IMG/VR virus record: IMGVR_UViG_3300020182_000010 | Span: 91,153 to 155,152 of that record | Source: a virus | Reading direction: 5' to 3' (one strand) | DNA: 64,000 bases | Part shown: positions 12,091 through 45,846 of the stretch, one piece after another | How positions within the stretch are numbered: the stretch's first letter is position 1 | How the letters are laid out: every line of letters starts with the position of its first letter | Translations under genes and position numbers: made by a program | The notes under the pieces: generated by a model | Seen by the model: the letters and a program-made list of their open reading frames with translations, nothing else | Databases searched by the model: none | Told to the model about the DNA's origin: nothing

Positions 12091-12120
12091 TTTATATAGT
12101 GATTCGTTCCGTTTGTCAAG
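12091..12120 (-). promoter_or_regulatory. sigma70 promoter with GANTC in spacer
   Basis: TTGACA aacggaacGAATCacta TATAAA. Confidence 0.8.
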
Positions 12121-12122
12121 TT

Positions 12123-12497
12123 TTATTGCATGTGTGAACTAACAAAATCTGGACCAAAAAATTCTGCACACATCACTTCTTCTGACGGGCGAGTTTTAGC
12201 ATAGCGCAAGTGAATTTTAATAAAGTCTTCGGATGACGTTTCTGCGAAATCTTTTTTCACACCTCGTCTGAACATCGCTTGCATAGCAGAGTTGAGCATT
12301 TCTTTTTGTTCTGCTGTGCATTCTTCTTTTATTGAAAGTGCATATGCGGCACAGCACAATTCTACGATATTTTTTACTTTGTTGATAGGACACATATAGA
12401 AATGACGCAAACCTGATTCTCGACTCTGACTTGCTTTGAAGATTGAGTTAACACGAATTTCTAGTTCACGCTCAGTCATATCATATACATTATACAT
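12123..12497 (-). CDS. Hypothetical early protein
   Basis: GAGAGGA RBS; own promoter. Confidence 0.7.
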   Translation of the reverse strand: MYNVYDMTERELEIRVNSIFKASQSRESGLRHFYMCPINKVKNIVELCCAAYALSIKEECTAEQKEMLNSAMQAMFRRGVKKDFAETSSEDFIKIHLRYAKTRPSEEVMCAEFFGPDFVSSHMQ

Positions 12498-12526
12498 AAC
12501 AGTATCCTCTCTCTGATTACTTAATT

Positions 12527-12556
12527 AATATAGAGCGATTCGTTAGTATTGTCAAG
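12527..12556 (-). promoter_or_regulatory. sigma70 promoter with GANTC in spacer
   Basis: TTGACA atactaacGAATCgctc TATATT. Confidence 0.8.
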
Positions 12557-12560
12557 TCTT

Positions 12561-13013
12561 TTATGCTGATTTCTTTTCGTAAACTGCTTCGCCATTAGAG
12601 AACACACCAATTTGTTCCATTTCTCCAAAGTTTGCGTGAAACTTTTTGGCAATCTTGCTGACCCATGCTTCTGCTAGTGGATTAACATCATCACCATAGT
12701 AACCTTTTTTAGCAACAATCCAGACAGCCGCACACCCACAGTATTCACTAACACCAAAATAAGCAAGTTGATTTTCAGCAATTGCTAATTCCTCACGGTC
12801 AACCCACTCTTCGCACTCTGACATAGATGGGAAAAGTTCTTTTACTTTCTCGACCATCCATTCTTTAAAGTGATCCCAATCATCACCGACGAGATATTCA
12901 TCGAAATTATCAAAATCAACACAATTGTTTTCTTCATCCCATCCGTAACCGTGCTCTGATACATCGTAGTACGCAACGATTGCGTCACGTGGTGTAGAAA
13001 CTGAACGACCCAT
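12561..13013 (-). CDS. Hypothetical early protein
   Basis: GAGGA RBS; own promoter. Confidence 0.75.
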   Translation of the reverse strand: MGRSVSTPRDAIVAYYDVSEHGYGWDEENNCVDFDNFDEYLVGDDWDHFKEWMVEKVKELFPSMSECEEWVDREELAIAENQLAYFGVSEYCGCAAVWIVAKKGYYGDDVNPLAEAWVSKIAKKFHANFGEMEQIGVFSNGEAVYEKKSA

Positions 13014-13032
13014 AGTTATTTCCTCTTCTCAG

Positions 13033-13075
13033 TGATTACTTAATTAATGTAAAATGATTCGTTAGATTTGTCAAG
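13033..13075 (-). repeat. 43-bp direct repeat copy 1, containing a GANTC sigma70 promoter
   Basis: Identical to 13246-13288; TTGACA aatctaacGAATCattt TACATT. Confidence 0.85.
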
Positions 13076-13229
13076 CTATCTTTTTTAATTTTTCTAAGAC
13101 TTCCCACATTTCTACCAATACAGGATGAGTTTTTCCTTCGAGACCTGGCATGTTATCGTAAACCAAGTCATGTACTTCGCCCAACTTTTCTTCGACCACT
13201 TCCATTATTTCTTCTTTAGTAAGAGTCAT
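13071..13229 (-). CDS. Small hypothetical protein (52 aa, not in track)
   Basis: MTLTKEEIMEVVEEKLGEVHDLVY...KKIA; its TGA overlaps the next -35 box. Confidence 0.65.
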   Translation of the reverse strand: MTLTKEEIMEVVEEKLGEVHDLVYDNMPGLEGKTHPVLVEMWEVLEKLKKIA

Positions 13230-13245
13230 AACATCCCTTTCTCTC

Positions 13246-13288
13246 TGATTACTTAATTAATGTAAAATGATTCGTTAGATTTGTCAAG
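13246..13288 (-). repeat. 43-bp direct repeat copy 2, containing a GANTC sigma70 promoter
   Basis: Identical to 13033-13075. Confidence 0.85.
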
Positions 13289-13310
13289 TATTATTTAACA
13301 CTTTTAGAGA

Positions 13311-13499
13311 TTAAAACTCGTCAATTAAAACACAATCTTCCTCTTCATCTTCACTCAAGTAAATAGAATCAAAAAGGGATTTAGGAACAACACCCAACCC
13401 AACCTTAGAACGTGTTTGACAATAGTGTTCATAATCTACACACTCTTTGATTTCGGGCAGAAAAGATAATGGATGGGATGTGATAATTTCTTGTGTCAT
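13311..13499 (-). CDS. Hypothetical early protein
   Basis: ORF track; preceded by TTGACA-17-TATAAA (13531-13560). Confidence 0.65.
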   Translation of the reverse strand: MTQEIITSHPLSFLPEIKECVDYEHYCQTRSKVGLGVVPKSLFDSIYLSEDEEEDCVLIDEF

Positions 13500-13561
13500 G
13501 TGATTCTCTTTCTTGTTAACTTATACATACTTTATAGCAGATGTATATTATGTTGTCAAGT

Positions 13562-13586
13562 AAAAAGGGCACCGAAGCGCCCTTTT
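13562..13586 (-). terminator. Intrinsic terminator fused to the downstream -35 box
   Basis: AAAAGGGCGC-TTCG-GTGCCCTTTTT then ACTTGACA on the minus strand. Confidence 0.75.
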
Positions 13587-13602
13587 ATTTTCCTCATTTG
13601 TA

Positions 13603-13857
13603 CTAATTAGCAAAAAGTGGTTGCATTGTTTCGAAAACTTTATTGTAAGCATTTACTTCTGCTTCATAGTATTCATAAAAATCGGAATCATCAGCGAAGT
13701 GTGCGTGGTCACAATTATAACTAGCACAATGTTCATCCCAAACACGGTTCATTGCTTCCATACCTTCAAGCAAATCACCACGACCATAAGAAGTCATTAC
13801 TGTTTTCGCATCTTCAAAGGTAGTATTGAACTGGTAAAAACTAGGAATTCTAAACAT
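13603..13857 (-). CDS. Hypothetical early protein
   Basis: GGAGA RBS; own promoter. Confidence 0.7.
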   Translation of the reverse strand: MFRIPSFYQFNTTFEDAKTVMTSYGRGDLLEGMEAMNRVWDEHCASYNCDHAHFADDSDFYEYYEAEVNAYNKVFETMQPLFAN

Positions 13858-13890
13858 ATCGTGTTCTCCGTTTTTCTAACTTATACATTC

Positions 13891-13920
13891 TTTATATACT
13901 GATTCGTTTAGAATGTCAAG
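13891..13920 (-). promoter_or_regulatory. sigma70 promoter with GANTC in spacer
   Basis: TTGACA ttctaaacGAATCagta TATAAA. Confidence 0.8.
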
Positions 13921-13926
13921 TAAAAA

Positions 13927-14751
13927 CTAAGAAAACATATTATTTAAATTGCCGTCGAATATAAAATGACCTGTGTGGTCTAATTTAACTAATGGGTCAA
14001 GTAATATTTCACCGCCAATATTTTGCCAACGACGGCAAAATGCATAATCTTCTGATAGATATCGTTTAGTATCAGGTTCCAAGTAAGTGTCAAAGAATAG
14101 ATAAGTCCATTTAGCAAACTCTGGATCTAAATTTAAATCATTGTTAAAGTAAAGATCCGGATATTCTTTGACCATTTTCATAATAACTTCACGCTTGATT
14201 AACATGAAACCGGTTGCAGCATCTTTAAGTAATGCTAATCCATCAGTCATTTGCATTCTTGGCGTATCTTCATCTAAATTATACTTGAAGTTAAGAGCAT
14301 AATTTGATCCCACTGAATTTAATATGTCACTATCTATTGATGAATTGTTTTTAACTGCATTTTGTATTTTATTCCAATCCAATTCTTTCTTTGGATATGC
14401 ACCAACGACAATATCTTTGTCATGCTGTAGCATATGTAAAATATCCAGTGCATCAAAATTTATATCTGCATCTATAAACATCATATGTGTTGCTGCAGGA
14501 TTAGACATAAAGTATGCTACCATATGACATCTTGCACGTGATATCAATGATTCATTTGCACTTGTGGTAAGAGAATAGGGGATTCCATACTTAGTGAACA
14601 TCATATGTGCACGTGACCAAGACCGAAAAAAAGGTTCAGTTACCTGTCCACCATAACATGGAGTACAGTAATGCACATGTGTTTTTTTAATGAAGTCTAA
14701 ATCAATTTCTTTTCTAAATTGCTGGCAGTGCTCTAATGCGCTATTATTCAA
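13927..14751 (-). CDS. Glycosyltransferase (GT-A/GT2-like, phage type)
   Basis: TPCYGG, ESLISRAR, FIDAD (DxD), TGFMLIKR, SEDYAFC. Confidence 0.75.
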   Translation of the reverse strand: MNNSALEHCQQFRKEIDLDFIKKTHVHYCTPCYGGQVTEPFFRSWSRAHMMFTKYGIPYSLTTSANESLISRARCHMVAYFMSNPAATHMMFIDADINFDALDILHMLQHDKDIVVGAYPKKELDWNKIQNAVKNNSSIDSDILNSVGSNYALNFKYNLDEDTPRMQMTDGLALLKDAATGFMLIKREVIMKMVKEYPDLYFNNDLNLDPEFAKWTYLFFDTYLEPDTKRYLSEDYAFCRRWQNIGGEILLDPLVKLDHTGHFIFDGNLNNMFS

Positions 14752-14786
14752 TTTTTATCCACTTCATTAATTTATAGTATTACTAC

Positions 14787-14815
14787 ATTATATACGATTC
14801 TACAGTAGATGTCAA
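14787..14815 (-). promoter_or_regulatory. sigma70 promoter with GANTC in spacer
   Basis: TTGACA tctactgtaGAATCgta TATAAT. Confidence 0.7.
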
Positions 14816-15492
14816 CGTTTTTGATCTTGTATCCATGCCTTTGCTTGTCTACTGTCAGGAGAACTATTTAAAAATTTCTGTACATTTTTATATACGGTAT
14901 TAAAGTTCTCTTGGCGTTCTTTATTTTCCTGGCCCATTGTATTATCTACAACATGAAAGTCAGCAGCGCCAAAAACTTGCTGAAATTGCATCAGATTATT
15001 CTGAACTCTATGCCACATTTTTATTACTACCTCGTCTGGTAATCTTCTAGCTCTATTTTTGTTTAACCTCGTTGCTTGTTCAAGGCTAGTGTTTACCATA
15101 ATCATCATTGTGTTGTAACCCAATGACTTTAATGCTTCACTATCTTTTTTAACTTTGCTCACATCTTTGCCTGTGCCATCAATTAGTACACCCAGTCTAC
15201 CATCTAAAAAGTGTCCACGTCTTTTTTGTGTAAGGTCTTTTGCTTTTTTGCGTACTTCTTGTCCTTGTGTTGAAAACACTTGCTCTGGATCACTTAGGTC
15301 AATATCTTGTTTCTGTGCTAAGTACTCATAAATTTCATCACTATTGATAGTTTTGAGGCCAGTGCCGCCCAACATCTTTCCAGCCACATATGACTTTCCA
15401 GATCCAGGACCACCAGCCATAAAAACTGCTTTGAAAATATGGGGATCATTCACGCCCTCTTCCATAGATTGTATGATTTCATTAACCCGCAT
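14812..15492 (-). CDS. P-loop kinase (AAA_33/zeta-toxin/PNK-like)
   Basis: GGPGSGKS, INSD, LIDGTG, NRARR lid; late GATAAATA box at 15522-15529. Confidence 0.8.
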   Translation of the reverse strand: MRVNEIIQSMEEGVNDPHIFKAVFMAGGPGSGKSYVAGKMLGGTGLKTINSDEIYEYLAQKQDIDLSDPEQVFSTQGQEVRKKAKDLTQKRRGHFLDGRLGVLIDGTGKDVSKVKKDSEALKSLGYNTMMIMVNTSLEQATRLNKNRARRLPDEVVIKMWHRVQNNLMQFQQVFGAADFHVVDNTMGQENKERQENFNTVYKNVQKFLNSSPDSRQAKAWIQDQKR

Positions 15493-15527
15493 TTGTACTT
15501 ACTCCATTAATTCATTATATATATTTA

Positions 15528-18231: not shown

Positions 18232-18282
18232 TTTATCCTCATTCTATTATGTTATATTTATTCATTTAATTAACTTCTACTA

Positions 18283-22018: not shown

Positions 22019-22048
22019 TTTATAGCATTGATTCGAGGATTTGTCAAG
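22019..22048 (-). promoter_or_regulatory. sigma70 promoter with GANTC in spacer
   Basis: TTGACA aatcctcGAATCaatgc TATAAA; preceded by hairpin 22049-22079. Confidence 0.75.
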
Positions 22049-26701: not shown

Positions 26702-26956
26702 TTAGTAATCAAAATCTGCTGCTGAATAATCGTCGCCTAGTGCTGCTGTTAGTGTAGTCGCTGTCCATGCGCCGTTATTTTCTACTGCAACGCGCTCTGC
26801 GCCTTCGCCTAGAATTACAACAGTTGCACGTGTGCCTACTGTTTCAACAACATGTTTCGCAGAGATTGTACCTGCTACTTTTGAGATTGTGAAATGTACA
26901 AGTGATCCTGTTAGGAATTGACCTGCATCATATGATTCGTGTACTTTTGCTACCAT
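26702..26956 (-). CDS. Probable virion structural protein, paralogue-like of 26195-26584
   Basis: Similar N-terminus; late box 27005-27012; GGAGA RBS. Confidence 0.6.
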   Translation of the reverse strand: MVAKVHESYDAGQFLTGSLVHFTISKVAGTISAKHVVETVGTRATVVILGEGAERVAVENNGAWTATTLTAALGDDYSAADFDY

Positions 26957-27035
26957 TTTATTTCTCCATTAAAATTTGTTGAGACTTTATCATCTCTATA
27001 CTTTTATTTATCATTTTTGTTCCAACAATTGTATG

Positions 27036-27887
27036 TTACTTTCTTCTAGATTGAAATTTTGTTAGACCAGATTTTGTTGGATTATCATATGTTGTCTTTG
27101 CTAATCGTTTGCCCAGTGCATCTGCACCTTTAGCAATTGCATAGGCTCCGCCAACTGCTACAACCGCTTTAACAATTGGACGATCCCAAATCTTTTTCTT
27201 TGTGTCATTTCTGTCATTCACAATATAATTACCACGCTTTTGAAAGGAAAGTAATGGTTGCATAAACTCACTTCGCATTGCTTTAGAACGCATATATTGA
27301 ACACTACGTGTTACTACTAATGCACGTTGATTTTGATTCAGATTATCCCAATCACCAACTAATCTACGCATAGACTTTAACATGCCATCTTGTATATTTA
27401 ATTGGCGCTGAAATCTAAGTAACATTTTTTGTTCAAATGCTGGACTATTTTTACTATTGCCTATATGAGTTAGATATTGTACTAAATCTGCTTTATTTGG
27501 AGATAATCTTTTCTTTGCAATTTCATCTTTTTCATTACTATTATCTTGATCTTTTCCCATAAGTCTATTAAGAGCAATATATAAATCAGTTCCGCTTGTT
27601 CTAAATGTATCAAAATTTCTAAATGCTACTGTACGTTTGGCATATTCACTTGCCAATGGCGCATAATCATAATCTTTATTAAAAATATTTAATAGCATTA
27701 GGTACATGAATGATACATCGGACGCATCATCTAAATTAACCTCACTTGCAATTTTTTTATTTCTAAAAAGTCGGCTCTCAGTTAGTTCATTCACTAACTG
27801 TAAACTTTTATCTTCATCATCACTTATATCATGGCCGCCATAAATTTCTGCCCATTGACTTGCTGTATATTTTTTATCATTTGCCAT
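27036..27887 (-). CDS. Hypothetical late protein
   Basis: ORF track; RBS. Confidence 0.7.
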   Translation of the reverse strand: MANDKKYTASQWAEIYGGHDISDDEDKSLQLVNELTESRLFRNKKIASEVNLDDASDVSFMYLMLLNIFNKDYDYAPLASEYAKRTVAFRNFDTFRTSGTDLYIALNRLMGKDQDNSNEKDEIAKKRLSPNKADLVQYLTHIGNSKNSPAFEQKMLLRFQRQLNIQDGMLKSMRRLVGDWDNLNQNQRALVVTRSVQYMRSKAMRSEFMQPLLSFQKRGNYIVNDRNDTKKKIWDRPIVKAVVAVGGAYAIAKGADALGKRLAKTTYDNPTKSGLTKFQSRRK

Positions 27888-27890
27888 GCT

Positions 27891-28085
27891 TTATTTCCTT
27901 TTATCTAGTATATCCTTCATGACATTTGTTGCTGTGTTGGTAAACCATCGTGGTGCCACACTGTGTATTAATAATGCTGGTACTAATAATTGCAATTTTA
28001 CCGCAGCACTTAGTGCAGTAGCCATATGTTGTAATCCACTTTCATTAACACTTTCTAAATGCTCTTTACATTTTTTACTAAACAT
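27891..28085 (-). CDS. DUF6356-like small protein
   Basis: HLESVNES..QHM...LLIH..P motif. Confidence 0.6.
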   Translation of the reverse strand: MFSKKCKEHLESVNESGLQHMATALSAAVKLQLLVPALLIHSVAPRWFTNTATNVMKDILDKRK

Positions 28086-28089
28086 TATA

Positions 28090-30144
28090 TTATCTTTCTT
28101 TTGTCATGTTTGCAGCACTAAAACCACTGCGATTAACTAATTTACTATCACCCTGGCCAATAACGTAGCCTTCGCCACCTCGCTGTCCATTTGTATATGC
28201 CTCTACATCTGCGTCACTTGCATCTAATTGTGCAATTATATCATTTTTTACTTTCATAATGCCCATTATTACTGTAAATAATGCCTTCATTCCTGCAGCA
28301 TTGTTATTTACATGATTGTTCATTCTATCTTTCATCTGTTCAGACATTTTGGCAGTTGCTATCCATTTTGACCAATCACCTGTTAAGTTATTCAACTTAC
28401 GTGCTTTTGTCATATTATTTACATATGTATAAAGTGCATTTTTGAAACTTGATAACTTGTTTGATTTTAAAAAATTATCATCTAATAACATATCTATTTT
28501 ATTGGCACTAGAATTTGCAATGCTTGCTACTTTATCTAAATCATCTGCTTGTACTCTTGGACCTTTTGTGAGTGTCACTGGTGGCATGATAAGAAGATTA
28601 CCTGAGTTTAACTCTGATGTATCTACTTTACTTTTTGTTCCATCAAGTTCAATCTTAGCATGTAAAACTACACCTGATTGACTTTTTGATATCTGTTTAC
28701 CGATATCACTATTGCCACGAACACGATATGTTACCGTATTTGGTGTGAAAACAAAATGCCCATCTTCTGCACTTGGTTTTGTAAAATATAATAAGTCACC
28801 ATGCACATAACCTCTAAAGTTTTCTGGCGTTGCTGCTTCATATATATCCCATATATTTGTCATTTGTTTTACAAAAGCCTTGCGGTTAGCATCCGGTGCT
28901 TCTTTGCCGCGTCTTAAAAACATTGATGCCATGTCATTTTTACTTGTTACTTTTCCATCATATCCTTTGGCACCGAAGCCACTCTTGTCTGTTAATACAA
29001 ATTCACCATTCTCATTGCGACCAAAGATTACCGCAGGCGAACCATCCCATTTAACAGTAACATTTTCAGGAGATTTCTCTAAATTCTTTAATGTTTCAAT
29101 CGATTTCGCAACACCTTTTGAACCATGCCAAATAGCAAAGTCTTCAACATGTTGAATACGTGCATCTGATTCACGCAACGAAGATTTAGCCCCTTCACTT
29201 AACTCGGTTGGAACACCAGCATTTTGAATACTTGGATTTGATTTGAAGTCTTTGAAAATCTTTTGTGCTAGTTCTTCTGGATAGTTTTTCTTAACTGCCG
29301 CATACAATGATTCAAAACTATCCATATCTGCAGGACTATCTAACTGTAGTTTTTTAGCAATCGTTGCATCGTCATAATATGGACCGCCAATTACTTCGTT
29401 ATTGTTTTTCTTAGTATAACCTTCGCCGTTCTTTTTAGGAACAGGTGTTCTACGAACACGCACTAGACCGTTTGAACTCCACATCCAACGTTCCATTTCC
29501 ATTGGACGACCATCTTCAGTTTTCTCATCACTTGCCGCCACGTTTAATCTGCCCGCAATACTGGCAATCATGATGTTACGATGAACACCTTTATACTTGC
29601 TATCTTCTTCATGTGGTGAGTGATAATATGTTTTCATCCATTTTGGATCGCCTGGCATAAAGTCCAATTGTACAAAACCAGTACGCCCTTCAGGTACACC
29701 TAAACTTTTTTTAGTTTTAGGGTCAAACATTTCACGGTTAGGGTCATAATTTTGGATTTTAATTTTAGTAATGTGTACGCTGGTTTTCGCATAGTATGAA
29801 ATTAGCGGATGATTTTTTAGCATTTCGCCAAATTCGTCACTTTTTTCTGGGGGGATCTTGATTGCAACGTCAATATCTCCGCTAAACTGTTTTTTGCCAA
29901 CACTACCAAGTGCCTGACTAACAAGATCAACACCCAATGCATTAGACAATGGTGTTAGTGTTGCTTTAATTTCGTCACGGTGAATTGGACCAACACCTGG
30001 TGCTGATCCGCTTTCATTAATTTGTGTATCATCAAGTAAGTTCTTCATACGATTATGTAGACCAACTTGTTTTAAGCGTGGCTTTCTTGGACCTCGAAAT
30101 CGGCGTTCAATTCCCTGATTTAAAATTATGTCTGATATCTTCAT
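28090..30144 (-). CDS. Fusion of Pol-beta-family nucleotidyltransferase and KWDG (ligase-like, DUF6267-like) domain
   Basis: GSVGKK..SGDIDV...VQLDF; HVED...TVKWDGSPA..FG, GDLLY, GEGYV, KLVNR..FS. Confidence 0.7.
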   Translation of the reverse strand: MKISDIILNQGIERRFRGPRKPRLKQVGLHNRMKNLLDDTQINESGSAPGVGPIHRDEIKATLTPLSNALGVDLVSQALGSVGKKQFSGDIDVAIKIPPEKSDEFGEMLKNHPLISYYAKTSVHITKIKIQNYDPNREMFDPKTKKSLGVPEGRTGFVQLDFMPGDPKWMKTYYHSPHEEDSKYKGVHRNIMIASIAGRLNVAASDEKTEDGRPMEMERWMWSSNGLVRVRRTPVPKKNGEGYTKKNNNEVIGGPYYDDATIAKKLQLDSPADMDSFESLYAAVKKNYPEELAQKIFKDFKSNPSIQNAGVPTELSEGAKSSLRESDARIQHVEDFAIWHGSKGVAKSIETLKNLEKSPENVTVKWDGSPAVIFGRNENGEFVLTDKSGFGAKGYDGKVTSKNDMASMFLRRGKEAPDANRKAFVKQMTNIWDIYEAATPENFRGYVHGDLLYFTKPSAEDGHFVFTPNTVTYRVRGNSDIGKQISKSQSGVVLHAKIELDGTKSKVDTSELNSGNLLIMPPVTLTKGPRVQADDLDKVASIANSSANKIDMLLDDNFLKSNKLSSFKNALYTYVNNMTKARKLNNLTGDWSKWIATAKMSEQMKDRMNNHVNNNAAGMKALFTVIMGIMKVKNDIIAQLDASDADVEAYTNGQRGGEGYVIGQGDSKLVNRSGFSAANMTKER

Positions 30145-32079: not shown

Positions 32080-32946
32080 TTAGTCAAACAGTGCTGGATT
32101 TAAATTGTTTTCTTCTTTCTTGCGTAATCGGTCTCTCTTCCATCCTTCGCGCTGCTTTTCTCGTTTTGCAAGTTCTTCTGCAGATGGTGAGATAGGCTCT
32201 GGATCAGGGACTACTTCAACTTCGTCCAATGTTGGCAAGAAAGCATCATATGCATTCTTATTCATTTCAAATCCAACAAATTTTCTACCATATCGCAATG
32301 CAGTTCTAGGTGTAGTGAAGCCGCCACAGAATGGATCCATTACTACATCGCCACGGTTACTACTATACAATATAAACTTTTCAATCCAATCTTCATTTAG
32401 TTGGTTCTTGTTTTTAATTTGTCCCGGCTTATGGCTACGTGGCATTGTTTGAACTGTCAGACGATCATGATAACTATCTTTACTATCTGTATAATAAGCA
32501 TTAGTATTAAATGTGCGCTTTTGTTTGCTTGTTTCTGGCTTTGACCAAAACAATACATGATAGTGACTACTTACAAATTTGTTTTTTGTTGATACACCAA
32601 AACTATATTGTGCAATAATATGATTAATTTCTTTTAAGTCTGTTGAGTGCAATGCATTAAGTATATGATGCAAATTTGTATATCCACTGACAATATACAT
32701 ACTACCGCCTGGTCGTAAAACCCTTGCACATTCTGTAATCCATTGCCTAGAAAAATCACCGTATGTTTCTAATGGAACTTCTACATAGCCAGGAACTACG
32801 TTGCCTTCGTCACGATTATAATGTGCGTCAAGTTTATCACCCTCAATACCATAAGGAGGATCAGTAAATATCAAATCTACTGTTCCATCTTCTATATGCT
32901 CATTGATGCCGCTAGTACAATCTTGATTATAAACTGTATGATTCAT
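32080..32946 (-). CDS. Beta-class N6-adenine/N4-cytosine DNA methyltransferase
   Basis: TDPPY (motif IV) before DPFCGG (motif I); own TTGATA-17-TATAAT promoter at 32969-32997. Confidence 0.9.
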   Translation of the reverse strand: MNHTVYNQDCTSGINEHIEDGTVDLIFTDPPYGIEGDKLDAHYNRDEGNVVPGYVEVPLETYGDFSRQWITECARVLRPGGSMYIVSGYTNLHHILNALHSTDLKEINHIIAQYSFGVSTKNKFVSSHYHVLFWSKPETSKQKRTFNTNAYYTDSKDSYHDRLTVQTMPRSHKPGQIKNKNQLNEDWIEKFILYSSNRGDVVMDPFCGGFTTPRTALRYGRKFVGFEMNKNAYDAFLPTLDEVEVVPDPEPISPSAEELAKREKQREGWKRDRLRKKEENNLNPALFD

Positions 32947-32993: not shown

Positions 32994-33578
32994 TCAAGCA
33001 TTTTGTATACTTTGTTTCACAGATTCAATTACCGCGCGTTGTGCTTTACGTTTTTCATCTTTGTAATTAACTTCAACTAGTTGTGTATTTGAAATATCTT
33101 CTGGTCTAAAAATAAACTCCAATGCATCAAATGGAATGTGTGCTTCAATGCCGTCAGATACTCCAACCAAATATGGTTTAACATCTTCAGCACTGATGAT
33201 TGCAATTGCGTTCTGTTGTCCAAGCATATAAAAATCTGCAGGATTTTCAATTGTTGTGCCTTTGTTTTCACCTAAACTATTTTTTAGTTTTACTTTGACT
33301 GTCTTTTTTTGATTATTGCGTTTAGTAAACATACCATCTGTCATATATTTAAATTCTATATCTAAATTTTCTATGATATCTCTATGGTCTCTACCGATAT
33401 CATCAACCCAAACCAGCCGCCCGTCTGTTGCTGCTTCAACTGTTTGTTCAATTATATCTGCCTTATCAAATCTATCTTTGCGGTCGTTCAACTGTGATCC
33501 CAAACTATATACAACCGAACTATATACTTGTGAATTAATTACTGATTTTAATTGAGTAGCATATGTAGAAGTTTTCAT
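32994..33578 (-). CDS. Hypothetical protein, candidate PD-(D/E)XK restriction endonuclease
   Basis: E...GRD...DIEFK pattern; adjacent to the MTase; start uncertain (ATG 33578 with AGGA RBS, or an upstream in-frame TTG). Confidence 0.45.
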   Translation of the reverse strand: MKTSTYATQLKSVINSQVYSSVVYSLGSQLNDRKDRFDKADIIEQTVEAATDGRLVWVDDIGRDHRDIIENLDIEFKYMTDGMFTKRNNQKKTVKVKLKNSLGENKGTTIENPADFYMLGQQNAIAIISAEDVKPYLVGVSDGIEAHIPFDALEFIFRPEDISNTQLVEVNYKDEKRKAQRAVIESVKQSIQNA

Positions 33579-33696
33579 TATCGTGTTTCCTAATATTTCA
33601 AAATGTCCCCAATAGTCTTCTGGTTCTATCTGAGTTTCGTCAAGATTGTTAAGAATATCCAACAAATCATCTCTCTGTTTATTAGCGTATACGTTC

Positions 33697-33726
33697 TTTA
33701 TATAATGATTCTTATTGCTTGTCAAG
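33697..33726 (-). promoter_or_regulatory. sigma70 promoter with GANTC in spacer
   Basis: TTGACA agcaataaGAATCatta TATAAA; preceded by terminator 33728-33752. Confidence 0.75.
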
Positions 33727-33750
33727 TAAAAAGAGCGCCGAAGCGCCCTT

Positions 33751-33966
33751 TTATTTTCCTCTACTAAATCTATCTTTTGGTCTATAAAAAATCTTTTGAT
33801 TATGAAATCTTCCTAGCAAATCACGAATTTCTTTTAACTCTTCGGCTAGTTTATCATCATGCTCTTCCATTAAACGTTTTGCCCTTCTGGAAACTTTTGC
33901 ACTTAATGCGTTTTCTATAATTTCTAAATCCCTAACTGTTAACTTGAAATTTTCATTCGGTTTCAT
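33751..33966 (-). CDS. Hypothetical small protein
   Basis: MKPNENFKL... with AAGGT RBS. Confidence 0.65.
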   Translation of the reverse strand: MKPNENFKLTVRDLEIIENALSAKVSRRAKRLMEEHDDKLAEELKEIRDLLGRFHNQKIFYRPKDRFSRGK

Positions 33967-33985
33967 AGTGCTGCTACCTTGCTTT

Positions 33986-34672
33986 TTAGTATGTTTTAAT
34001 AATTTTATCAGCAATTCCATGTTTAATTGCCTCTTCTGGAGTTAACCACATATCACTTTCTGGAAGCAAGTGTTTACGAATGTAACTTTCTGTTTTGCCT
34101 GTGCATTTTTTATAATGGTCAAGCATCCGTTCTGTTGATAATTCAAACTCTTTAACAATTGACATTAGTTCATGTTCTTTGCCTTTTGATCCCCAACTAT
34201 ATTGATGTGACATTACACTTGTATTTTGTGTGAGATAACGATGACCTTTTTCACCTGACATCATTAACAGAACACCACAACTTGCAATCATGCCCATTCC
34301 ATATGTATATACTGGAATTTCACTTTGTTTAATTGTGTCTATAAGATGCAATGCACTATTTACAGCACCTCCTGGTGAATTAATATAAAGATGAATTATA
34401 TTAGGTCTTTGTTCAGCAGGCATCATATTATATTCCATAATCATTTTGACTAATGGCATACAATTTTCTTGATTGAATTCTTTATCCATGAATAATACAC
34501 CATTATCATACAGTATTTCACCTGGCTTTTTTGGTGGCATTGGTGGCTGCGGCATCGGCATTTGTGGTGTTGCCGGTTGCTCTTTTGGTGATGGAATTAC
34601 TTTTGTTTCTACTGCTGGTTTTTTCTCTGGTGTCTTTTTGGTTGTTTTCTTTTTGACTGGATTCTTTGCCAT
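33986..34672 (-). CDS. clpP: ClpP-family protease
   Basis: LYINSPGG, IASCG (catalytic Ser), MSHQ, SDMWLTPEEA..HGIAD. Confidence 0.9.
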   Translation of the reverse strand: MAKNPVKKKTTKKTPEKKPAVETKVIPSPKEQPATPQMPMPQPPMPPKKPGEILYDNGVLFMDKEFNQENCMPLVKMIMEYNMMPAEQRPNIIHLYINSPGGAVNSALHLIDTIKQSEIPVYTYGMGMIASCGVLLMMSGEKGHRYLTQNTSVMSHQYSWGSKGKEHELMSIVKEFELSTERMLDHYKKCTGKTESYIRKHLLPESDMWLTPEEAIKHGIADKIIKTY

Positions 34673-34690
34673 GTATTTGTATTTCCTATA

Positions 34691-35692
34691 TTATCCTAAA
34701 CGCATTTTTACGTTAATTTTAGTACTATTACTTATCTTACTATCAATTATACTCTTTAGAGTATATAACTTACCATATTTATTCACTGCATCAGCGGCGT
34801 CTTTTATATCATCTTCCCATCTTGGAAAACTAACTGACCAACCGTTTTCAATTGCTTGCTTAATTAATTTTTCACCTGCTTTATCTCTATCAGGGCTTAA
34901 AATAATATCACCTTTAAATAAATTGATATAATCTATCTGCTCCTTACTCGCCTCATTGCTCATTATAGCCACACAGTCTAATGCAGCCGCATCAAACACT
35001 CCTTCTGTTATTATTAGATACTTACGCTTACTATTAATAACATCTATATTATATATAAAGTCTTTAGGCGTCTTCATCATGTACTTTGAATCTGCTTTAC
35101 CAGTATAGTCTCTACCAGTATAACCTACTATACGTCCACCTTGGTAATAGGGAATAATAACACGGTGTCTGAATACTGGATGTGGGCTCCAGTATATGTT
35201 ATTCACATGATCATATAGTCCACGATCTATCAAGTATTTAGCACCTAAAATCGCTCTTTTATCAGGTGCGTCAATTTGTAGTATATCTTCCAATAACATA
35301 CTTCCAACTGGCAATTCACAATCTTTAAATTTAGGTATTATAGTTCTAGACTTTTTACTAGCAAATGTCATTGGGCCATCTGCTAATTCTTTATCTCTAA
35401 TCGCTTGTAATTGAATACGTTTTATATCACTATCAGGAATTCCCAAATTACGCATTAGCAAAATCATTTTCTTATTAATGACTCTACCTAACTTATGTGA
35501 TGCAGTAAATCCACAATTAAAACAATGATACGATATACTATCTATATCGTTTCTAATGCCGCCGCGCAATCTTGTATCATTTCTTGCTTCGCCATTATCT
35601 ATGCAACAAGGGCAATTAAATGATAACCAGCCACCACTACTAGGTCTCTGAGGTCTAGGCAGACTCGAATATATAACTTCCTGTAGATTCAT
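34691..35692 (-). CDS. gp61: DNA primase (T4 gp61-like)
   Basis: CPCC...HCFNCG Zn finger, YTGR, EGVFDA, PDRD TOPRIM. Confidence 0.88.
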   Translation of the reverse strand: MNLQEVIYSSLPRPQRPSSGGWLSFNCPCCIDNGEARNDTRLRGGIRNDIDSISYHCFNCGFTASHKLGRVINKKMILLMRNLGIPDSDIKRIQLQAIRDKELADGPMTFASKKSRTIIPKFKDCELPVGSMLLEDILQIDAPDKRAILGAKYLIDRGLYDHVNNIYWSPHPVFRHRVIIPYYQGGRIVGYTGRDYTGKADSKYMMKTPKDFIYNIDVINSKRKYLIITEGVFDAAALDCVAIMSNEASKEQIDYINLFKGDIILSPDRDKAGEKLIKQAIENGWSVSFPRWEDDIKDAADAVNKYGKLYTLKSIIDSKISNSTKINVKMRLG

Positions 35693-35698
35693 AAGTTT

Positions 35699-35728
35699 AT
35701 AATAAACTATAATATAATAATTGTCAAG
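35699..35728 (-). promoter_or_regulatory. sigma70 promoter, leaderless configuration
   Basis: TTGACA-17-TATTAT-6nt-ATG. Confidence 0.7.
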
Positions 35729-35741
35729 TATTATTTAAAAT

Positions 35742-36677
35742 TTAAATCCACTTTGCAATTTTGCGACCACCCATTGGATATACTCCAAATCTAGCACCTT
35801 TAATACCAAAGTTATTTCTATCTTTTGAGTATCTTACCATTAATACTGGTTCAAACTCTCCTTCAAGTCTTTCCTTATTTGCATGAGATGAACCAGTTGC
35901 AACAAGTTTATTACCATCAAATTTTGGTTCACCCTGTAATACCAAATCAACATTTTGCGGTCCTGTCTTGCCGCCCCAGCCTATACCATAAATTGCAATA
36001 CCGCGTAGTCTTCCATCTTTTAGTTTTCTAGCAAATGTTGAGCCTTTAATCATTTGTCCATCAGGTGATATATCTCTGACTGCCTGTACAAATGAATCTA
36101 TTTCTTCTTTAATACTTGGTATACGGTTATAAACAACCGCAAGTTCTTTATCTGAAACTCCGCCCCATTGTCCAAAGTCTTTTGCCTGAGAACCTTTTTT
36201 ATGTGAAACCCAAGCAACTGCATTACCACTTGCGTCAACTGCATGAAAATCTGATTTAGGAGTACCTGGAGTAGAAACAAACTTGGCGACCGATACAGTC
36301 CGATTACCAATGACAAGATCAATTTCTGCATTATCTTGTTTCATCTGTCCTAGCATTTTATTTATTGTTCCAAGTGCAGCATCTTCATCACGTGTAGAAA
36401 ACCCTAAGCCTTTGCCACCGAACTCACTAGTTTTTTCCAAACCTGAAAGTCTCACTGTGCGACCGTCTTCTAGTTCAAACGTATCAGGAATAATACCATT
36501 TTTAAGATTATCTATAACTTCAGAATTCTTCTTAATAATTACAGATGGCTCACTTTGTCCAGCAAGAACGAAAGGCTCACCTTTTTTAATCTTGGCAATC
36601 AATGTTTGTAATCTATTGGGATTATCTTTTAAGTTTCGTTTTACAAGAGGTCCTTCTTGAAGTTCATTATATTTCAT
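35742..36677 (-). CDS. Hypothetical protein, PD-(D/E)XK-like nuclease candidate (MKYNELQEG N-terminus)
   Basis: KTSEFGG; TPKSDF...SHKKG...QWGG. Confidence 0.5.
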   Translation of the reverse strand: MKYNELQEGPLVKRNLKDNPNRLQTLIAKIKKGEPFVLAGQSEPSVIIKKNSEVIDNLKNGIIPDTFELEDGRTVRLSGLEKTSEFGGKGLGFSTRDEDAALGTINKMLGQMKQDNAEIDLVIGNRTVSVAKFVSTPGTPKSDFHAVDASGNAVAWVSHKKGSQAKDFGQWGGVSDKELAVVYNRIPSIKEEIDSFVQAVRDISPDGQMIKGSTFARKLKDGRLRGIAIYGIGWGGKTGPQNVDLVLQGEPKFDGNKLVATGSSHANKERLEGEFEPVLMVRYSKDRNNFGIKGARFGVYPMGGRKIAKWI

Positions 36678-37560: not shown

Positions 37561-37565
37561 TAGTT

Positions 37566-39265: not shown

Positions 39266-39266
39266 A

Positions 39267-41523: not shown

Positions 41524-41740
41524 TCTCTGCTCCTCTTGGCGGTGCGATGTATTTGCCACCATTTATGAATATAAACATACTACAAATCTTCTTAGATGTA
41601 AAGTAAAAACAGTCATTATTATCAAAATATTCTACACTCCACTCTGTTGATTGCAATGATTGTTCACACCATTTGACTGCATTTTTCGTGTCACTATAAT
41701 TAACTATTAATACACGATGTAATGTATTAAAAGAAATCAT
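41513..41740 (-). CDS. Hypothetical protein
   Basis: ORF track. Confidence 0.55.
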   Translation of the reverse strand: MISFNTLHRVLIVNYSDTKNAVKWCEQSLQSTEWSVEYFDNNDCFYFTSKKICSMFIFINGGKYIAPPRGAENGR

Positions 41741-42227: not shown

Positions 42228-43672
42228 TAGTATTTTACCTTTTCTATGCTGAATGGATATTCGGCATCTTTATAGAATTTCTTTCTTTCGGTTAAATGTC
42301 TTTTTGAGAATCTACATCGACTGGTGACATCCCAGATTTGAACAAAATCTTTATCTTTTGCCACACGGACACCACGACCGATAGACTGAATAACCCGCAC
42401 AAAAGACTTGCCAGGCTCCAAAAGAACCATGTTGAATATGCGAGGGATGTTAATACCAACGGCGGCAACACCGTAAGTAGCAATAGTGATTGAATTGGTA
42501 CCTTCATTTATTTCCTTATATGCTGTTTTCCTATCATCAGATTTCATAGAACCTTGTACAAAATCTGCTTCTGGAATTAGCTCCTGTAATGCTTGTCCTG
42601 AATTAATACGCCCAGTTAAAACTAGGGTATTTCCTGTTTGTGATATTTCTTTAATTAAGTTGGCTAAATATTCTTGTCGTTTTTTATCCTCTAACAAAAA
42701 TTTAAGTTCACTTTGATAATCAGTATATGACTGTGTTTCTTGTGTTTGAACAACATTTACATGACAATTGGATAATACACCAATATCTTGTAAATCTTTG
42801 GCCGCTAGTCGATTTACGATATCTCCCAGACTGGCACGTATGGTAGCAAACTCATGATCGGACTTGGGAATAGTCCCTGTTAATCCCCAACGCAACGGAA
42901 CACGTGAAAATACACTTGTTAACAAATCTTTTAGTACATCAGCCTTTGCTTGATGTACTTCGTCTACTATTACGCAACATACATCTTCAATAAAGTCCAT
43001 GATGTTGTCTTCGCCTTTTTTAGTTTTCTTTAGCAAGGAATTGAGGGATTGCCATGTACAGATGGTGTGGGTTTTTCCAATATCTTTCCTATCACCGAAG
43101 TAAACACCAGCATCTAACCCACAGTTTAGATAGTCTTCTTCGGTCTGCCGTACCAAGTCCTTATTTGGTACAATAACAATTGAACGCCCATACTTTTCTA
43201 CTAATTTAGACATAGTGGCAGTCATAATAGTTTTACCGGCACCTGTAGCAATCTCTTGTAGAGCCTGTGGTGCTTCTAAAAACTTATTAACAACGGCAAC
43301 CTGATAATCACGAAGGCGAATAGGTTCACCTTCCGCTGGATGTCCTTCAGGCCAACATGTATCACCCCAAAATTCATCATCAATTGTATCAAATTCTAGT
43401 TCAATATGTTCACGCCTATCATCAATGTCAATCTCATATCCAGAACTCATAATTATAGGTAAAAGATCATCTAATAAATTTAGATAAGTTCTGCCACCTA
43501 CATCACAAAATCTAACCGTTCCGTCCCATCGTCCCAATTTATAAGCAGGCATATGGTATGCATGTGGCAATAAAAACTTTAACTTATCACTACACTTACG
43601 GCGTGTTGCAGGATCAAGTCCTTCTAACTTTACGTTTACTTCGTCTTTTATTAAGATTGTACATTTTTTCAT
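42227..43672 (-). CDS. uvsW: SF2 DNA helicase UvsW
   Basis: LRDYQ, ATGAGKT, VDEVH, GLTGT, QSIGRGVR. Confidence 0.92.
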   Translation of the reverse strand: MKKCTILIKDEVNVKLEGLDPATRRKCSDKLKFLLPHAYHMPAYKLGRWDGTVRFCDVGGRTYLNLLDDLLPIIMSSGYEIDIDDRREHIELEFDTIDDEFWGDTCWPEGHPAEGEPIRLRDYQVAVVNKFLEAPQALQEIATGAGKTIMTATMSKLVEKYGRSIVIVPNKDLVRQTEEDYLNCGLDAGVYFGDRKDIGKTHTICTWQSLNSLLKKTKKGEDNIMDFIEDVCCVIVDEVHQAKADVLKDLLTSVFSRVPLRWGLTGTIPKSDHEFATIRASLGDIVNRLAAKDLQDIGVLSNCHVNVVQTQETQSYTDYQSELKFLLEDKKRQEYLANLIKEISQTGNTLVLTGRINSGQALQELIPEADFVQGSMKSDDRKTAYKEINEGTNSITIATYGVAAVGINIPRIFNMVLLEPGKSFVRVIQSIGRGVRVAKDKDFVQIWDVTSRCRFSKRHLTERKKFYKDAEYPFSIEKVKY

Positions 43673-43678
43673 AATAAT

Positions 43679-43708
43679 ATAATAACACTTTTATCGGTTC
43701 AAGTCAAG
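43679..43708 (-). promoter_or_regulatory. sigma70 promoter, leaderless configuration
   Basis: TTGACT-17-TATTAT-6nt-ATG. Confidence 0.7.
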
Positions 43709-43756
43709 AAAAAACAGACATCCATTAGATGCCTGCTTTTGAAATTTTAATATAGA

Positions 43757-44731
43757 CTACACCCGTTTCATACATGTAGTTTCTGCTAATCGCTTCCAAC
43801 GTGCAGGACTTAACTTACACAAGTCAGCCAACTTCTGAGCCATGCGAAGTGAAATTTCACGCATTTTTGCTTGATTATCTTCCAGGAATGTTACAATATC
43901 AACTTCCTGTTCTTTAGTCAAACCTTTCTGATCGAACAACCCACCATCACGTGCAATCTGTTTTATGCGCAAGATTTTTTCGCGTGTTGTATCCATAGTC
44001 AAATCAAGATAGTGACAGCGTGACATAATAGCCCCGAGGTGATCTTTGATTTTTGTTGAACGTACATTGTCGAATTTCAAGTTAGTGATAAAGATTACAG
44101 AACCTTTGAACTCAAAACGATCAGGAACACCTTCACGGCGCAAGAAATGCGAGTCTGAATTCCAAGAGATATAACGTTTCTTGCCACTATCAAGTGCAGC
44201 TTTAAGAATGTTTAGTGCATTCTCGTCAAACAAGATGCTATCACAGTCATCCAAAACAACGATGTTCTTTGCATCTGAATACTTGTAAAGCATTGCATAC
44301 AAACCAATCGGTGACATTGTGCCTTTGACAAATGTGTGACGAAGCGGATTGTCTGCCATTAAATCAAACAGTGAATCTTTCTCAAGTATTTGCTCAACAC
44401 CATATGTTTTGCCAATACCAGGAGGTCCAGATACCACCATACCACGCACGATACCATCACATGTTGCTACAGTCATTTCATCTAATATAGCAAAACGTTC
44501 CGCAATGCGATCCATAACCTCAACATCAGTCTCACGATGAAATGATACAACCTCAACGTTTTCAGGCTGTACTTTTACTCGCATTTTTGAACGTTTAAAT
44601 TCTGTTTCACTTGCATCAACTGTTATGAAATTTGTACCATTTTTTGCTTGTTTCATTTCAGAAACTACAGGAAAAATACCTGTTACTTCTTCATTGCGAT
44701 AAAATCCGTTTGTTATTTGAACTACTGACAT
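43757..44731 (-). CDS. AAA+ ATPase
   Basis: GPPGIGKT, VVLDDCD, IFITN, SR. Confidence 0.85.
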   Translation of the reverse strand: MSVVQITNGFYRNEEVTGIFPVVSEMKQAKNGTNFITVDASETEFKRSKMRVKVQPENVEVVSFHRETDVEVMDRIAERFAILDEMTVATCDGIVRGMVVSGPPGIGKTYGVEQILEKDSLFDLMADNPLRHTFVKGTMSPIGLYAMLYKYSDAKNIVVLDDCDSILFDENALNILKAALDSGKKRYISWNSDSHFLRREGVPDRFEFKGSVIFITNLKFDNVRSTKIKDHLGAIMSRCHYLDLTMDTTREKILRIKQIARDGGLFDQKGLTKEQEVDIVTFLEDNQAKMREISLRMAQKLADLCKLSPARWKRLAETTCMKRV

Positions 44732-44761
44732 TTACGTTTCCTCTTTGTGATTACTAACTTA

Positions 44762-44791
44762 GTTATAAACTGATTCTCTTATAATGTCAAG
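44762..44791 (-). promoter_or_regulatory. sigma70 promoter with GANTC in spacer
   Basis: TTGACA ttataagaGAATCagtt TATAAC. Confidence 0.75.
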
Positions 44792-44798
44792 TATCTAT

Positions 44799-45050
44799 TT
44801 ACCGATGCCTCCAAGGTTCAGCCAAATCTGCTAAGTGCCGTTGGTAATTATTATAGGAAATTGTATAATCTTGCCAAGAACTATATGTATATGTTTCAGG
44901 ACCAACTTTATTATTCCGTGATTCTGCAGATGCACGTGCCATTTTTTCACCATATGGATACCAATCGACCAATTCTTTAGTATCAGATGTGTACACAACA
45001 AAAATAGGATAACCCTTTTTGACTTCAGTTTTTAGTTTTTCAATATTCAT
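44799..45050 (-). CDS. Hypothetical protein
   Basis: ORF track. Confidence 0.65.
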   Translation of the reverse strand: MNIEKLKTEVKKGYPIFVVYTSDTKELVDWYPYGEKMARASAESRNNKVGPETYTYSSWQDYTISYNNYQRHLADLAEPWRHR

Positions 45051-45052
45051 TA

Positions 45053-45223
45053 TTAAACCCTAGACAATTCAAAATAACAATCGGCAACAAGTTGTATAGC
45101 ATTATCACCATATCGTTCTCTTACTTTATCATATACGGTCTCTACATCTTTACCAGAATTGATTAACTGCTGTGCAAAATTTTGCACTTCCATTCGGAAA
45201 CTTTTAGTGATTGGAGTATTCAT
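45053..45223 (-). CDS. Small hypothetical protein (56 aa, not in track)
   Basis: MNTPITKSFRMEVQNFAQQLINSG...; TAATG-coupled. Confidence 0.6.
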   Translation of the reverse strand: MNTPITKSFRMEVQNFAQQLINSGKDVETVYDKVRERYGDNAIQLVADCYFELSRV

Positions 45224-45621
45224 TATGCTGCTTCTTTCATTTCACTACGATAGTTGTATGGTTTATCCCATTTACCACAGTTTATATCAATGTAAAAGTC
45301 GTGGTCAAAATAATCAATTTGTGAATTGCTGTTGTTGTAGTAACCAGTTGATTTGATTGCTACAAGCAAATCGCCATAGAAACGTTTAATTATCGGATCG
45401 TTAGCATTTTCCTCACACCAGTAGTGGTTAACTTGCAGATTATCACCAGAGATACCTGCATCACCCAGTAGGTCAAGCGGTCCGCCCCAAAGATTGACAA
45501 CCAATGAACTATGATTATCAACGCCAACAGTTACTTCTCTACCAGTAAATCCATATGATTTACACACTATTTTAACATTTTTTGCAATTACTTTTTTGCG
45601 GTCCTGAGAAATATAAGCCAT
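45223..45621 (-). CDS. Hypothetical early protein
   Basis: MAYISQ...SQIDYFD...GKWDKPY; AAGGA RBS. Confidence 0.75.
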   Translation of the reverse strand: MAYISQDRKKVIAKNVKIVCKSYGFTGREVTVGVDNHSSLVVNLWGGPLDLLGDAGISGDNLQVNHYWCEENANDPIIKRFYGDLLVAIKSTGYYNNSNSQIDYFDHDFYIDINCGKWDKPYNYRSEMKEAA

Positions 45622-45652
45622 ATTGTTAGTCCTTTTCACTGATTACTATTAT

Positions 45653-45682
45653 AATATAAAGTGATTCGCTATATTTGTCAAC
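45653..45682 (-). promoter_or_regulatory. sigma70 promoter with GANTC in spacer
   Basis: TTGACA aatatagcGAATCactt TATATT. Confidence 0.8.
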
Positions 45683-45816
45683 CTTTTTATGACAGGATAA
45701 CGCAAAAAATACCAATAATAGTTGTAACGGTCATAATTTCAGAAGTTAAAGTTACCATTCCATTTTTAAGTACATTCAACATTTTTAAAGCCCTCATTGT
45801 TGCTATCTATACATAC

Positions 45817-45846
45817 TTTATATAATGATTCGTTTAAGATGTCAAG
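45817..45846 (-). promoter_or_regulatory. sigma70 promoter with GANTC in spacer
   Basis: TTGACA tcttaaacGAATCatta TATAAA; preceded by terminator 45847-45876. Confidence 0.8.

Follow-up and report, generated by a model that had tools for sequence, protein, structure and literature searches.

The GcrA promoters of Caulobacter crescentus, exemplified by PcsM (Haakonsen 2015; Wu 2018, 2023), combine sigma70 hexamers with a YGAKTCK site in the spacer at about -20, so oriented that GATTCG lies on the template strand. The motif of GcrA has been given as TGATTCG and, more broadly, as YGAKTCK (Haakonsen 2015, PMC4647560); boxes upstream of the start mostly center on -20 ± 1 or -30 ± 2, in the spacer, and sites on cellular promoters are also found at +5 to +30 (PMC9976885). 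Being tethered to sigma region 2, GcrA must bind the helix from the side facing away from the polymerase, and the cryo-electron microscopy (cryo-EM) scaffold of GcrA with RNA polymerase (RNAP) that was derived from PcsM reads TTGACA, 7 nucleotides (nt), GAATC with N6-methyladenine (m6A) as its first adenine, 5 nt, TATAAT, the non-template strand carrying CGAATC. Here we describe a viral promoter class of similar design, in which a GANTC-containing box occupies a fixed position between sigma70-type hexamers. It is examined in a window of 64,000 nt, that is, the whole stretch of DNA analyzed, which spans positions 91,153-155,152 of the IMG/VR virus record IMGVR_UViG_3300020182_000010 (hereinafter G000), and in relatives of this phage.

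The phage boxes differ from those of Caulobacter in being viral, in their number of about 20 copies per genome and in their single rigid position, whereas the cellular boxes are scattered (-20, -30 and +5 to +30); moreover, the phage hexamers are near the Escherichia coli consensus and are embedded in AT-rich DNA, and the phage class is known from sequence alone. Sites for a host cell-cycle regulator likewise occur in phage promoters in the case of CtrA and alphaproteobacterial phages ('lytic deferment'; Mascolo 2022, PMC9437464), but CtrA is a response regulator that recognizes TTAA-N7-TTAA, whereas the phage described here would employ a methylation-dependent sigma cofactor. The phiCbK-like phages of Caulobacter (Gill 2012, PMC3556154) are also large alphaproteobacterial phages tied to the GcrA module; however, they encode a GcrA homologue that has been proposed to act on host genes, whereas the phages in question have sites in cis and no gcrA. 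In the middle promoters of T4, with their MotA box and the appropriation of sigma by AsiA, a fixed extra box similarly marks a temporal class that is transcribed by the host polymerase, but the MotA box at -30 replaces the -35 element, which the present promoters keep in its consensus form, with the box at -20. In the Dam-controlled promoters (P1 cre, Mu mom and traJ), adenine methylation sets the activity of promoters of mobile elements and ties it to replication; these cases involve the GATC methyltransferase of Gammaproteobacteria, the readers OxyR and Lrp, and single promoters, as opposed to a genome-wide class. Phage use of host CtrA sites, phage-encoded GcrA homologues and Dam-controlled phage promoters are, then, already known; in the literature that we searched, no phage promoter class based on the GcrA/CcrM site has been described.

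A box of fixed position in sigma70-type promoters

The window contains 15 matches to the pattern TTGACA-N17-TAYA, against 1.1 expected, and none of 100 shuffled sequences reached this number. In 11 of the 15, all on the minus strand, GAATC lies within the spacer: nine times at spacer positions 9-13 (matches from 12093, 12529, 13048, 13261, 13893, 33699, 44764, 45655 and 45819) and twice displaced by one base, to positions 10-14 (match at 14789) or 8-12 (match at 22021). On the opposite strand, eight of these boxes read YGATTCG and the other three YGATTCT, and all 11 are compatible with the broader GcrA consensus. For any one spacer position, GAATC has a chance probability of about 0.001 per promoter; the remainder of the spacer is near random, and eight of the window's 11 YGATTCG heptamers are promoter boxes. 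The first gene behind eight of the 11 promoters is a small open reading frame (ORF) that has no family match or belongs to a phage family of unknown function; the remaining three promoters lead to DNA-metabolism genes (exonuclease, helicases, methyltransferase). An earlier, sequence-only reading of the window had listed the same 11 promoters (its start coordinates, 12091 and so on, denote the plus-strand end of the full -10 hexamer), the same partition of box positions and the same eight opposite-strand sites, a variable rest of the spacer and a predominance of small early-type genes downstream. All of this was borne out, the coordinates and the positional partition exactly, and the comparison with background frequencies that it had called for showed GANTC to be rarer in the window than expected (131 sites against 172 ± 14), with the boxes far above chance. 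The promoter element is real and strongly selected. Throughout G000, GAATC occupies spacer positions 9-13 in 20 of the 33 strict TTGACA-N17-TAYA promoters; the block AAC-GAATC-A-Y-T is nearly invariant in this genome, and the upstream flanks and spacer positions 1-7 are almost information-free.

G000 is a 155-kilobase (kb) record, 42% complete according to CheckV, of which the window is the final 64 kb; the window has a GC content of 35% and carries nearly all of its genes on the minus strand. These include genes for a DnaB-like helicase, a primase, a RecA/UvsX-like protein, a gp32-like protein and an exonuclease, along with both ribonucleotide reductase subunits, a T4-type large terminase and a ClpP-like protease. 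Cultured jumbo phages (PA5oct, Atu_ph07, Phosso and Rak2-like phages) have helicases with about 50% identity to that of the window, and those of many marine and saline-lake contigs in IMG/VR are 75-99% identical to it. The relatives include two near-complete 342-kb genomes, G001 (92% complete) and G002 (100% complete, with terminal repeats). On account of these helicase relatives and near-complete genomes, the window is assigned, by its gene content, to an uncultured marine jumbo phage, of which it is a fragment. A DNA-level search of cultured phages gave no match to this phage, and the 46-nt promoter used as a BLAST query gave chance matches only (E at least 0.8). A large aquatic phage lineage described recently (2025) is a different group, with predicted Bacteroidota hosts. 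A near-identical phage is present in two pieces, 2747842453_000002 (120.8 kb) and 2747842453_000003 (146.0 kb) of IMG/VR, in one non-metagenome IMG assembly, from a single cell or an isolate.

The family was compared across five genomes, G000, G001, G002, G003 and the 89-kb G005, the four relatives being searched in whole for GANTC between -35-like and -10-like hexamers. There are 22 box promoters in G000, 20 in G001, about 20 in G002, eight in G003 and three in G005. Their hexamers are of the sigma70 type (TTGACA and TATAAA, TATATT or TACATT), and they come in two designs, one with a 17-nt spacer and the other with a 16-nt spacer and an extended -10 element (TGn). GANTC and the -10 hexamer are separated by 4 nt in both designs (3 or 5 nt in a few copies), so the box is set relative to the -10 element and not to the -35 element. 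Base statistics were obtained from 67 non-redundant promoters of the five genomes, in which only the positions that are not forced by the search pattern are informative. At the unforced flanks, C is found at -22 in 57 of the 67 promoters and a purine (R) at -16 in 66; the central N of GANTC is A in 63 and T in four; and the template strand carries YGATTCG or YGATTCT, that is, the YGAKTCK context, in 66. Spacer positions -28 to -24 and -13 contain about 0 bits, and the sole conserved element of the spacer is C-GAATC-R. In all five genomes, purine-T-A is conserved 7-9 nt past the -10 hexamer (+1 to +3); the purine, 7 nt after the hexamer, is likely to be the transcription start, and with +1 placed there, GANTC would extend from -21 to -17, with its center at -19. 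Protein identity to this phage ranges among the relatives from 99% down to about 40%, and contigs at the lower end still retain the box, a degree of conservation that reflects purifying selection on the 7-nt element and not shared descent alone.

In their template-strand sequence (TGATTCG or CGATTCG, less often YGATTCT), the phage boxes resemble the sites of GcrA; they lie on the same strand as the box of the cryo-EM scaffold, in a register 1 nt nearer to the -10 element, and the promoter at 22019 has the exact scaffold register. Judging by these comparisons, the phage boxes agree with the known GcrA promoter class in sequence, position and orientation together. The box-free sigma70-type promoters of G000 present a different picture: TGn is found in six of nine, including the promoters of the transfer-messenger RNA (tmRNA) and of tRNAs, and in none of 20 box promoters, a distribution compatible with the polymerase being helped by either the box or an extended -10 element. 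Ten clustered tRNA genes (G000 26820-28731) lie behind box-free extended -10 promoters, as does the tmRNA gene, and stable-RNA genes and early protein genes of G000 seem to have different promoter designs.

When IMG/VR was scanned with TTGACA-N7-CGAATCR-N3-TATA, at least 116 stretches matched, and about a quarter of the matches listed had two to four copies. The control pattern with the box reversed matched 48 stretches, one copy each, and therefore only multi-copy contigs count as evidence. Most of the matches listed are relatives of this phage, and 17 single-copy matches among them, in unrelated contigs, are within chance. The terminase of contig G408 (49 kb, 91% complete) shares 62% identity with its counterpart in Rhizobium phage P106B; this contig contains four box promoters of the same design and shares no protein with the jumbo family, so the occurrence of the box in this unrelated phage argues for a host-encoded reader. 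The box is absent from the cultured gammaproteobacterial relatives PA5oct, XaC1 and 121Q, the hosts of which are Pseudomonas, Xanthomonas and E. coli.

Phage-encoded candidates and host class

Profile searches of the six genomes G000-G005 yielded no GcrA (PF07750), where the sequence-only reading had suggested looking for gcrA homologues, no sigma70 region 4 and, in a search made without a positive control, no MotA activation domain (MotA_activ), which bears on the MotA-like factor that this reading had named as the alternative. With no phage sigma70 region 4 gene, the -35/-10 promoters must be read by the host primary sigma factor. The phage does have a PF01555 enzyme, a predicted beta-class N6-adenine DNA methyltransferase of 288 amino acids (aa) encoded at 32080..32946 of the window on the minus strand (112.7 bits; motifs in the beta-class order, with DPPY). 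Among solved structures, its best match is CcrM itself (6pbd, E 2.9e-21, with DPPY aligned). However, the residues that define CcrM and M.HinfI, namely, L42, R44, W57 and D58 of Loop-2B and N120, P123, N124, F125, G127, R129 and N132 of Loop-45 (PMC7672430), correspond in the phage enzyme to K, D, a gap and V, and to F, S, T, a gap, a gap, K and S, respectively (in the 6pbd alignment, the PDB chain number is the residue number plus 8). The C-terminal DNA-binding segment of about 80 residues (S315, H317, N330, W332 and R350) is unmatched in the phage methyltransferase, the alignment with CcrM stopping at residue 232, and the NCBIfam CcrM equivalog model gives 98 bits against a cut-off of 830, with the PRK11524 adenine-specific DNA-methyltransferase model equally close. 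By these features, the enzyme is a beta-class methyltransferase and not an ortholog of CcrM or M.HinfI. GANTC could still be its target because M.HhaII methylates GANTC without the CcrM/M.HinfI features (PMC7672430). In G001 (92% complete), boxes are present and there is no PF01555 gene, so the methyltransferase is not an obligatory partner of the box; together with the residue comparison, this speaks against a phage CcrM homologue as the source of methylation.

The window encodes a permuted, two-piece tmRNA of the alphaproteobacterial type (5400..5707, minus strand, with its own box-free TGn promoter at 5677-5703), which matches the Rfam family RF01849 (alpha_tmRNA) with 126.3 bits against a gathering score of 50 and also matches RF04321 (permuted tmRNA). 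The tmRNAs of the four relatives (G001 185943-186373, G002 281184-281530, G003 5334-5725 and G005 51603-51962) match RF01849 with 92-123 bits, and the same genes are marked tmRNA* by ARAGORN, which is taken to mean permuted. The presence of an alpha-type tmRNA in all five phages supports a host within the Alphaproteobacteria, a class that has GcrA and CcrM, and lends independent support to what the sequence-only reading had assumed. The tag peptides diverge among the five phages: ANNNYAPEMALAA (that of the window tmRNA), ANTNAAPAMAKLAA, ANDNYQPEMAMAA, ANENFAPVAYALAA and ANANYQPEMAMAA.

The GcrA/CcrM pair is kept in most Alphaproteobacteria, reduced endosymbionts aside, and in the marine SAR11, SAR116, Rhodobacteraceae and Rhodospirillales GANTC or GAWTC is methylated and these words are depleted. 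In the phage genomes, the log2 observed/expected ratio under a composition model is -0.15 to -0.88 for GAWTC and -0.85 to -1.56 for GASTC, a depletion that is smaller under higher-order models. This depletion, likened to that in GANTC-methylating marine Alphaproteobacteria, is counted in favor of a GcrA/CcrM connection. A SAR11 host is neither shown nor excluded by the sequence data; GASTC is depleted in the phages at least as much as GAWTC, unlike in the published SAR11 pattern. A phage of 340 kb also seems large for SAR11 cells. A Firmicutes host, an idea prompted by the low GC content and the consensus promoters, was set aside in view of the helicase relatives and the tmRNA.

Direct searches for the host gave little: the helicase had no match in GTDB genome contigs, and BLAST of the tmRNA against 401 sampled Pseudomonadota genomes gave only partial matches of 71-75%. 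The phage also encodes a full-length, bifunctional PutA of 947 aa (L137:13280-16123, minus strand, equivalent to G000 33280-36123). Among GTDB genomes, this protein matched only a Thiomicrospira and a Pseudomonadales metagenome-assembled genome, at about 40% identity, which is uninformative on the host, and a protein atlas that includes PutA led to the phylum level only. Short palindromes are avoided far more strongly than GANTC, in a manner that differs by relative (AGCT/GAGCTC in G000 and G001, GTAC in G003, CGCG and GATC in G002 and G005), and GCWGC is almost absent from G002 and G005 (log2 observed/expected of about -9 and -7, respectively), suggesting that close relatives face different restriction pressure in their hosts.

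Explanations for the box

With slightly better than even confidence, we favor the explanation that the box promoters are coupled to GcrA and CcrM, such that the host RNAP-sigma70 holoenzyme together with GcrA would read methylated YGATTCG at about -19. Under this scheme, virion DNA would enter the cell with N6-methyladenine at GANTC, placed there by the CcrM of the host it came from or, possibly, by an enzyme of the phage; GcrA, already positioned on sigma70 region 2 of the host holoenzyme, would contact the box by its DNA-binding domain from the helix face opposite the polymerase; and polymerase binding and open-complex formation would be raised at about 20 phage promoters per genome. The small early-type genes and a part of the replication module would then track both the abundance of GcrA, which in the Caulobacter model is tied to S-phase, and the methylation of the template. 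We infer here the presence of GcrA and CcrM in the host, the methylation of the sites, the action of GcrA on them and any timer. As regards the GcrA-based switch proposed by the sequence-only reading, the motif, its position, orientation and conservation across divergent relatives, the sigma70 design and the alphaproteobacterial host class speak for it, and a phage gcrA and a CcrM-type phage enzyme were not found.

Several observations weigh against the GcrA explanation. With -35 and -10 hexamers so close to consensus, the promoters might do without an activator. The block conserved in G000 exceeds the GcrA heptamer, and another reader or recent duplication could contribute to it. Three of the four G408 copies have one and the same spacer over its full length, and the remaining copy departs from it by a single-base insertion, so that this genome counts as a single event. 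Box promoters are lacking or found at chance level only in the Pelagibacter phages HTVC115P and HTVC103P, in the Rhizobium and Sinorhizobium phages P106B, RHph_X2_24 and Phosso, in the roseobacter phage CRP-804 and in the Agrobacterium phage Atu_ph07. The tmRNA is a sign of contact with Alphaproteobacteria and not of the present host. With a phage enzyme that is not CcrM-like and none in G001, virion methylation would rest on the host enzyme, and CcrM is present only briefly in Caulobacter. Finally, a published scan of alphaproteobacterial phages revealed no GcrA-site signal (PMC9437464).

A stronger form of the GcrA explanation, which we consider rather unlikely, is a methylation clock of the kind that the sequence-only reading had proposed: methylated virion DNA would activate the approximately 20 early promoters as it enters a cell, provided that GcrA is present there, and replicated, not yet methylated DNA would be silent. 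If it exists, such a clock would serve as an early-to-late switch and as a mark of self versus progeny, without a phage-encoded regulator. Methylation of GANTC by the phage enzyme, the gene of which follows a box promoter, would, if true, tend to sustain the promoters rather than silence them.

Phages commonly place sites for their own regulators in early promoters, and the box might be the operator of a phage-encoded DNA-binding protein, either an early shut-off repressor or a virion-delivered activator, with the likeness to GcrA sites a coincidence. Most genes of the phage are of unknown function, which leaves room for an undetected regulator, and the lack of the box in the cultured alphaproteobacterial phages indicates that it is not general on such hosts. 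In G000, the conserved stretch is wider than the heptamer, AA being found at -24/-23 and T at -14 in 20 of 20 promoters; however, these extra positions are not kept in G001-G003, where only C-GANTC-R is. Furthermore, the match to GcrA sites involves sequence, position and orientation at once, the flip of the central base between A and T in G002 (CGATTCG and TGATTCG) suits GANTC better than an asymmetric operator, the same design recurs in G408, which has no detectable protein in common with the family, and neither MotA-like proteins (in the search without a positive control) nor sigma region 4 proteins were found. On these grounds, a phage operator appears unlikely, if the most serious of the alternatives.

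Two further explanations appear improbable. One of these retains methylation and dispenses with GcrA: m6A at -20/-18 would alter the binding of sigma70-RNAP or the geometry of the spacer, or else another host protein would read the site, such as CcrM itself or a silencer of the MucR type, the binding of which methylation would block. The invariant core of the box is GANTC itself, GANTC is depleted elsewhere in the phage genomes, and AT-rich DNA of foreign origin is what alphaproteobacterial silencers naturally target. However, the conserved C at -22 and R at -16 are preferences of GcrA, of which CcrM needs neither, and the constant distance to the -10 element fits GcrA tethered on sigma region 2. 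The other explanation, to which we assign an equally small chance, involves no trans-acting reader: an ancestral promoter cassette would have spread by duplication and would have been kept for its intrinsic strength with the host polymerase. Near-identical copies that include the 5' leader do exist (window 13046 and 13259; G000 38609, 38939, 85975 and 86328), and the shared spacers of G408 are of the same nature. Against such a history, the flanks and spacer positions 1-7 are randomized among copies and genomes while the 7-nt box is kept down to about 40% protein identity, and the distance between the box and the -10 element is held in two spacer designs. To our knowledge, there is no sigma70 contact that would select CGAATCR at -22 to -16.

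Genes behind the promoters and implications

The 11 box promoters of the window are all on the minus strand. That at 12091..12119 (TTGACA, 17-nt spacer, CGAATCA at -22 to -16, -10 element TATAAA) drives ORFs of 113, 73 and 83 aa, and that at 12527..12555 (CGAATCG, TATATT) a 124-aa ORF without a family match. The promoter at 13046..13074 (CGAATCA, TACATT) precedes a 150-aa ORF, also without a family match, and its 27-nt core is identical to that of the promoter at 13259..13287, behind which lies a 52-aa ORF; an 84-aa ORF, again without a family match, follows the promoter at 13891..13919 (CGAATCA). The two displaced boxes are found in the promoters at 14787..14815 (AGAATCG shifted by +1, with a 3-nt gap to TATAAT), which drives a 274-aa ORF (phrog_1574, function unknown), and at 22019..22047 (CGAATCA shifted by -1, with a 5-nt gap, as in the PcsM scaffold, and then TGC), behind which a small ORF is followed by the exonuclease and a 731-aa protein. 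The promoter at 33697..33725 (AGAATCA, template TGATTCT) adjoins a terminator hairpin and leads to an ORF of about 218 aa and then to the methyltransferase and the DnaB-like helicase. Genes for an ATPase-like protein of 324 aa (phrog_1250) and for a DEAD/ResIII helicase follow the promoter at 44762..44790 (AGAATCA), and that at 45653..45681 (CGAATCA) drives ORFs of 138, 56 and 83 aa; the promoter at 45817..45845 (CGAATCA) is located 164 bp upstream of the latter. For comparison, the box-free sigma70-type promoter at 13533..13559 (minus strand) has an extended -10 element (TGC-TATAAA) and likewise adjoins a terminator hairpin. One and the same GC-rich hairpin, GGGCGC-TTCG-GCGCCC and then a T run, abuts the -35 element of several promoters (window 13533-13586 and 33725-33750; G000 38939 region), forming compact terminator-promoter cassettes between small genes. 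The 5' leaders after box promoters in G000 belong to two families, one starting with aagtaagtatagattg and the other with ttaattaagtaatcag; these conserved leaders may carry a further signal.

Some features of these genomes are unrelated to the box. An ORF of 2239 aa at window positions 57226-63945 (minus strand), with only weak Pfam matches, includes about five tandem copies (58948-62871) of a unit of about 831 nt (277 aa) that are 88-98% identical; it may encode a repetitive fibre or surface protein. In G001, the 28-tRNA cluster of the phage contains, at 132737-132811, a tRNA with the anticodon CTA, labelled Pyl by ARAGORN, which is possibly an amber-suppressor tRNA. Matches to the manA RNA motif (RF01745) barely exceed the gathering score in G002 (L132:4861-5059) and G005 (L115:14556-14753).

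If the GcrA explanation holds, this would be the first virus to wire a whole promoter class to the CcrM/GcrA module, so far only a chromosomal cell-cycle regulator, and phages of Alphaproteobacteria would have, besides CtrA sites, a second, mechanistically distinct route to sense the cell cycle of the host. It would also supply natural promoters of a rigid, repeated architecture for the biochemistry and structural study of GcrA, and it raises the question of how virion DNA becomes methylated given a short-lived host enzyme. A YGATTCG box fixed 4 nt upstream of the -10 element may also serve to link uncultured marine phages with hosts among the Alphaproteobacteria.

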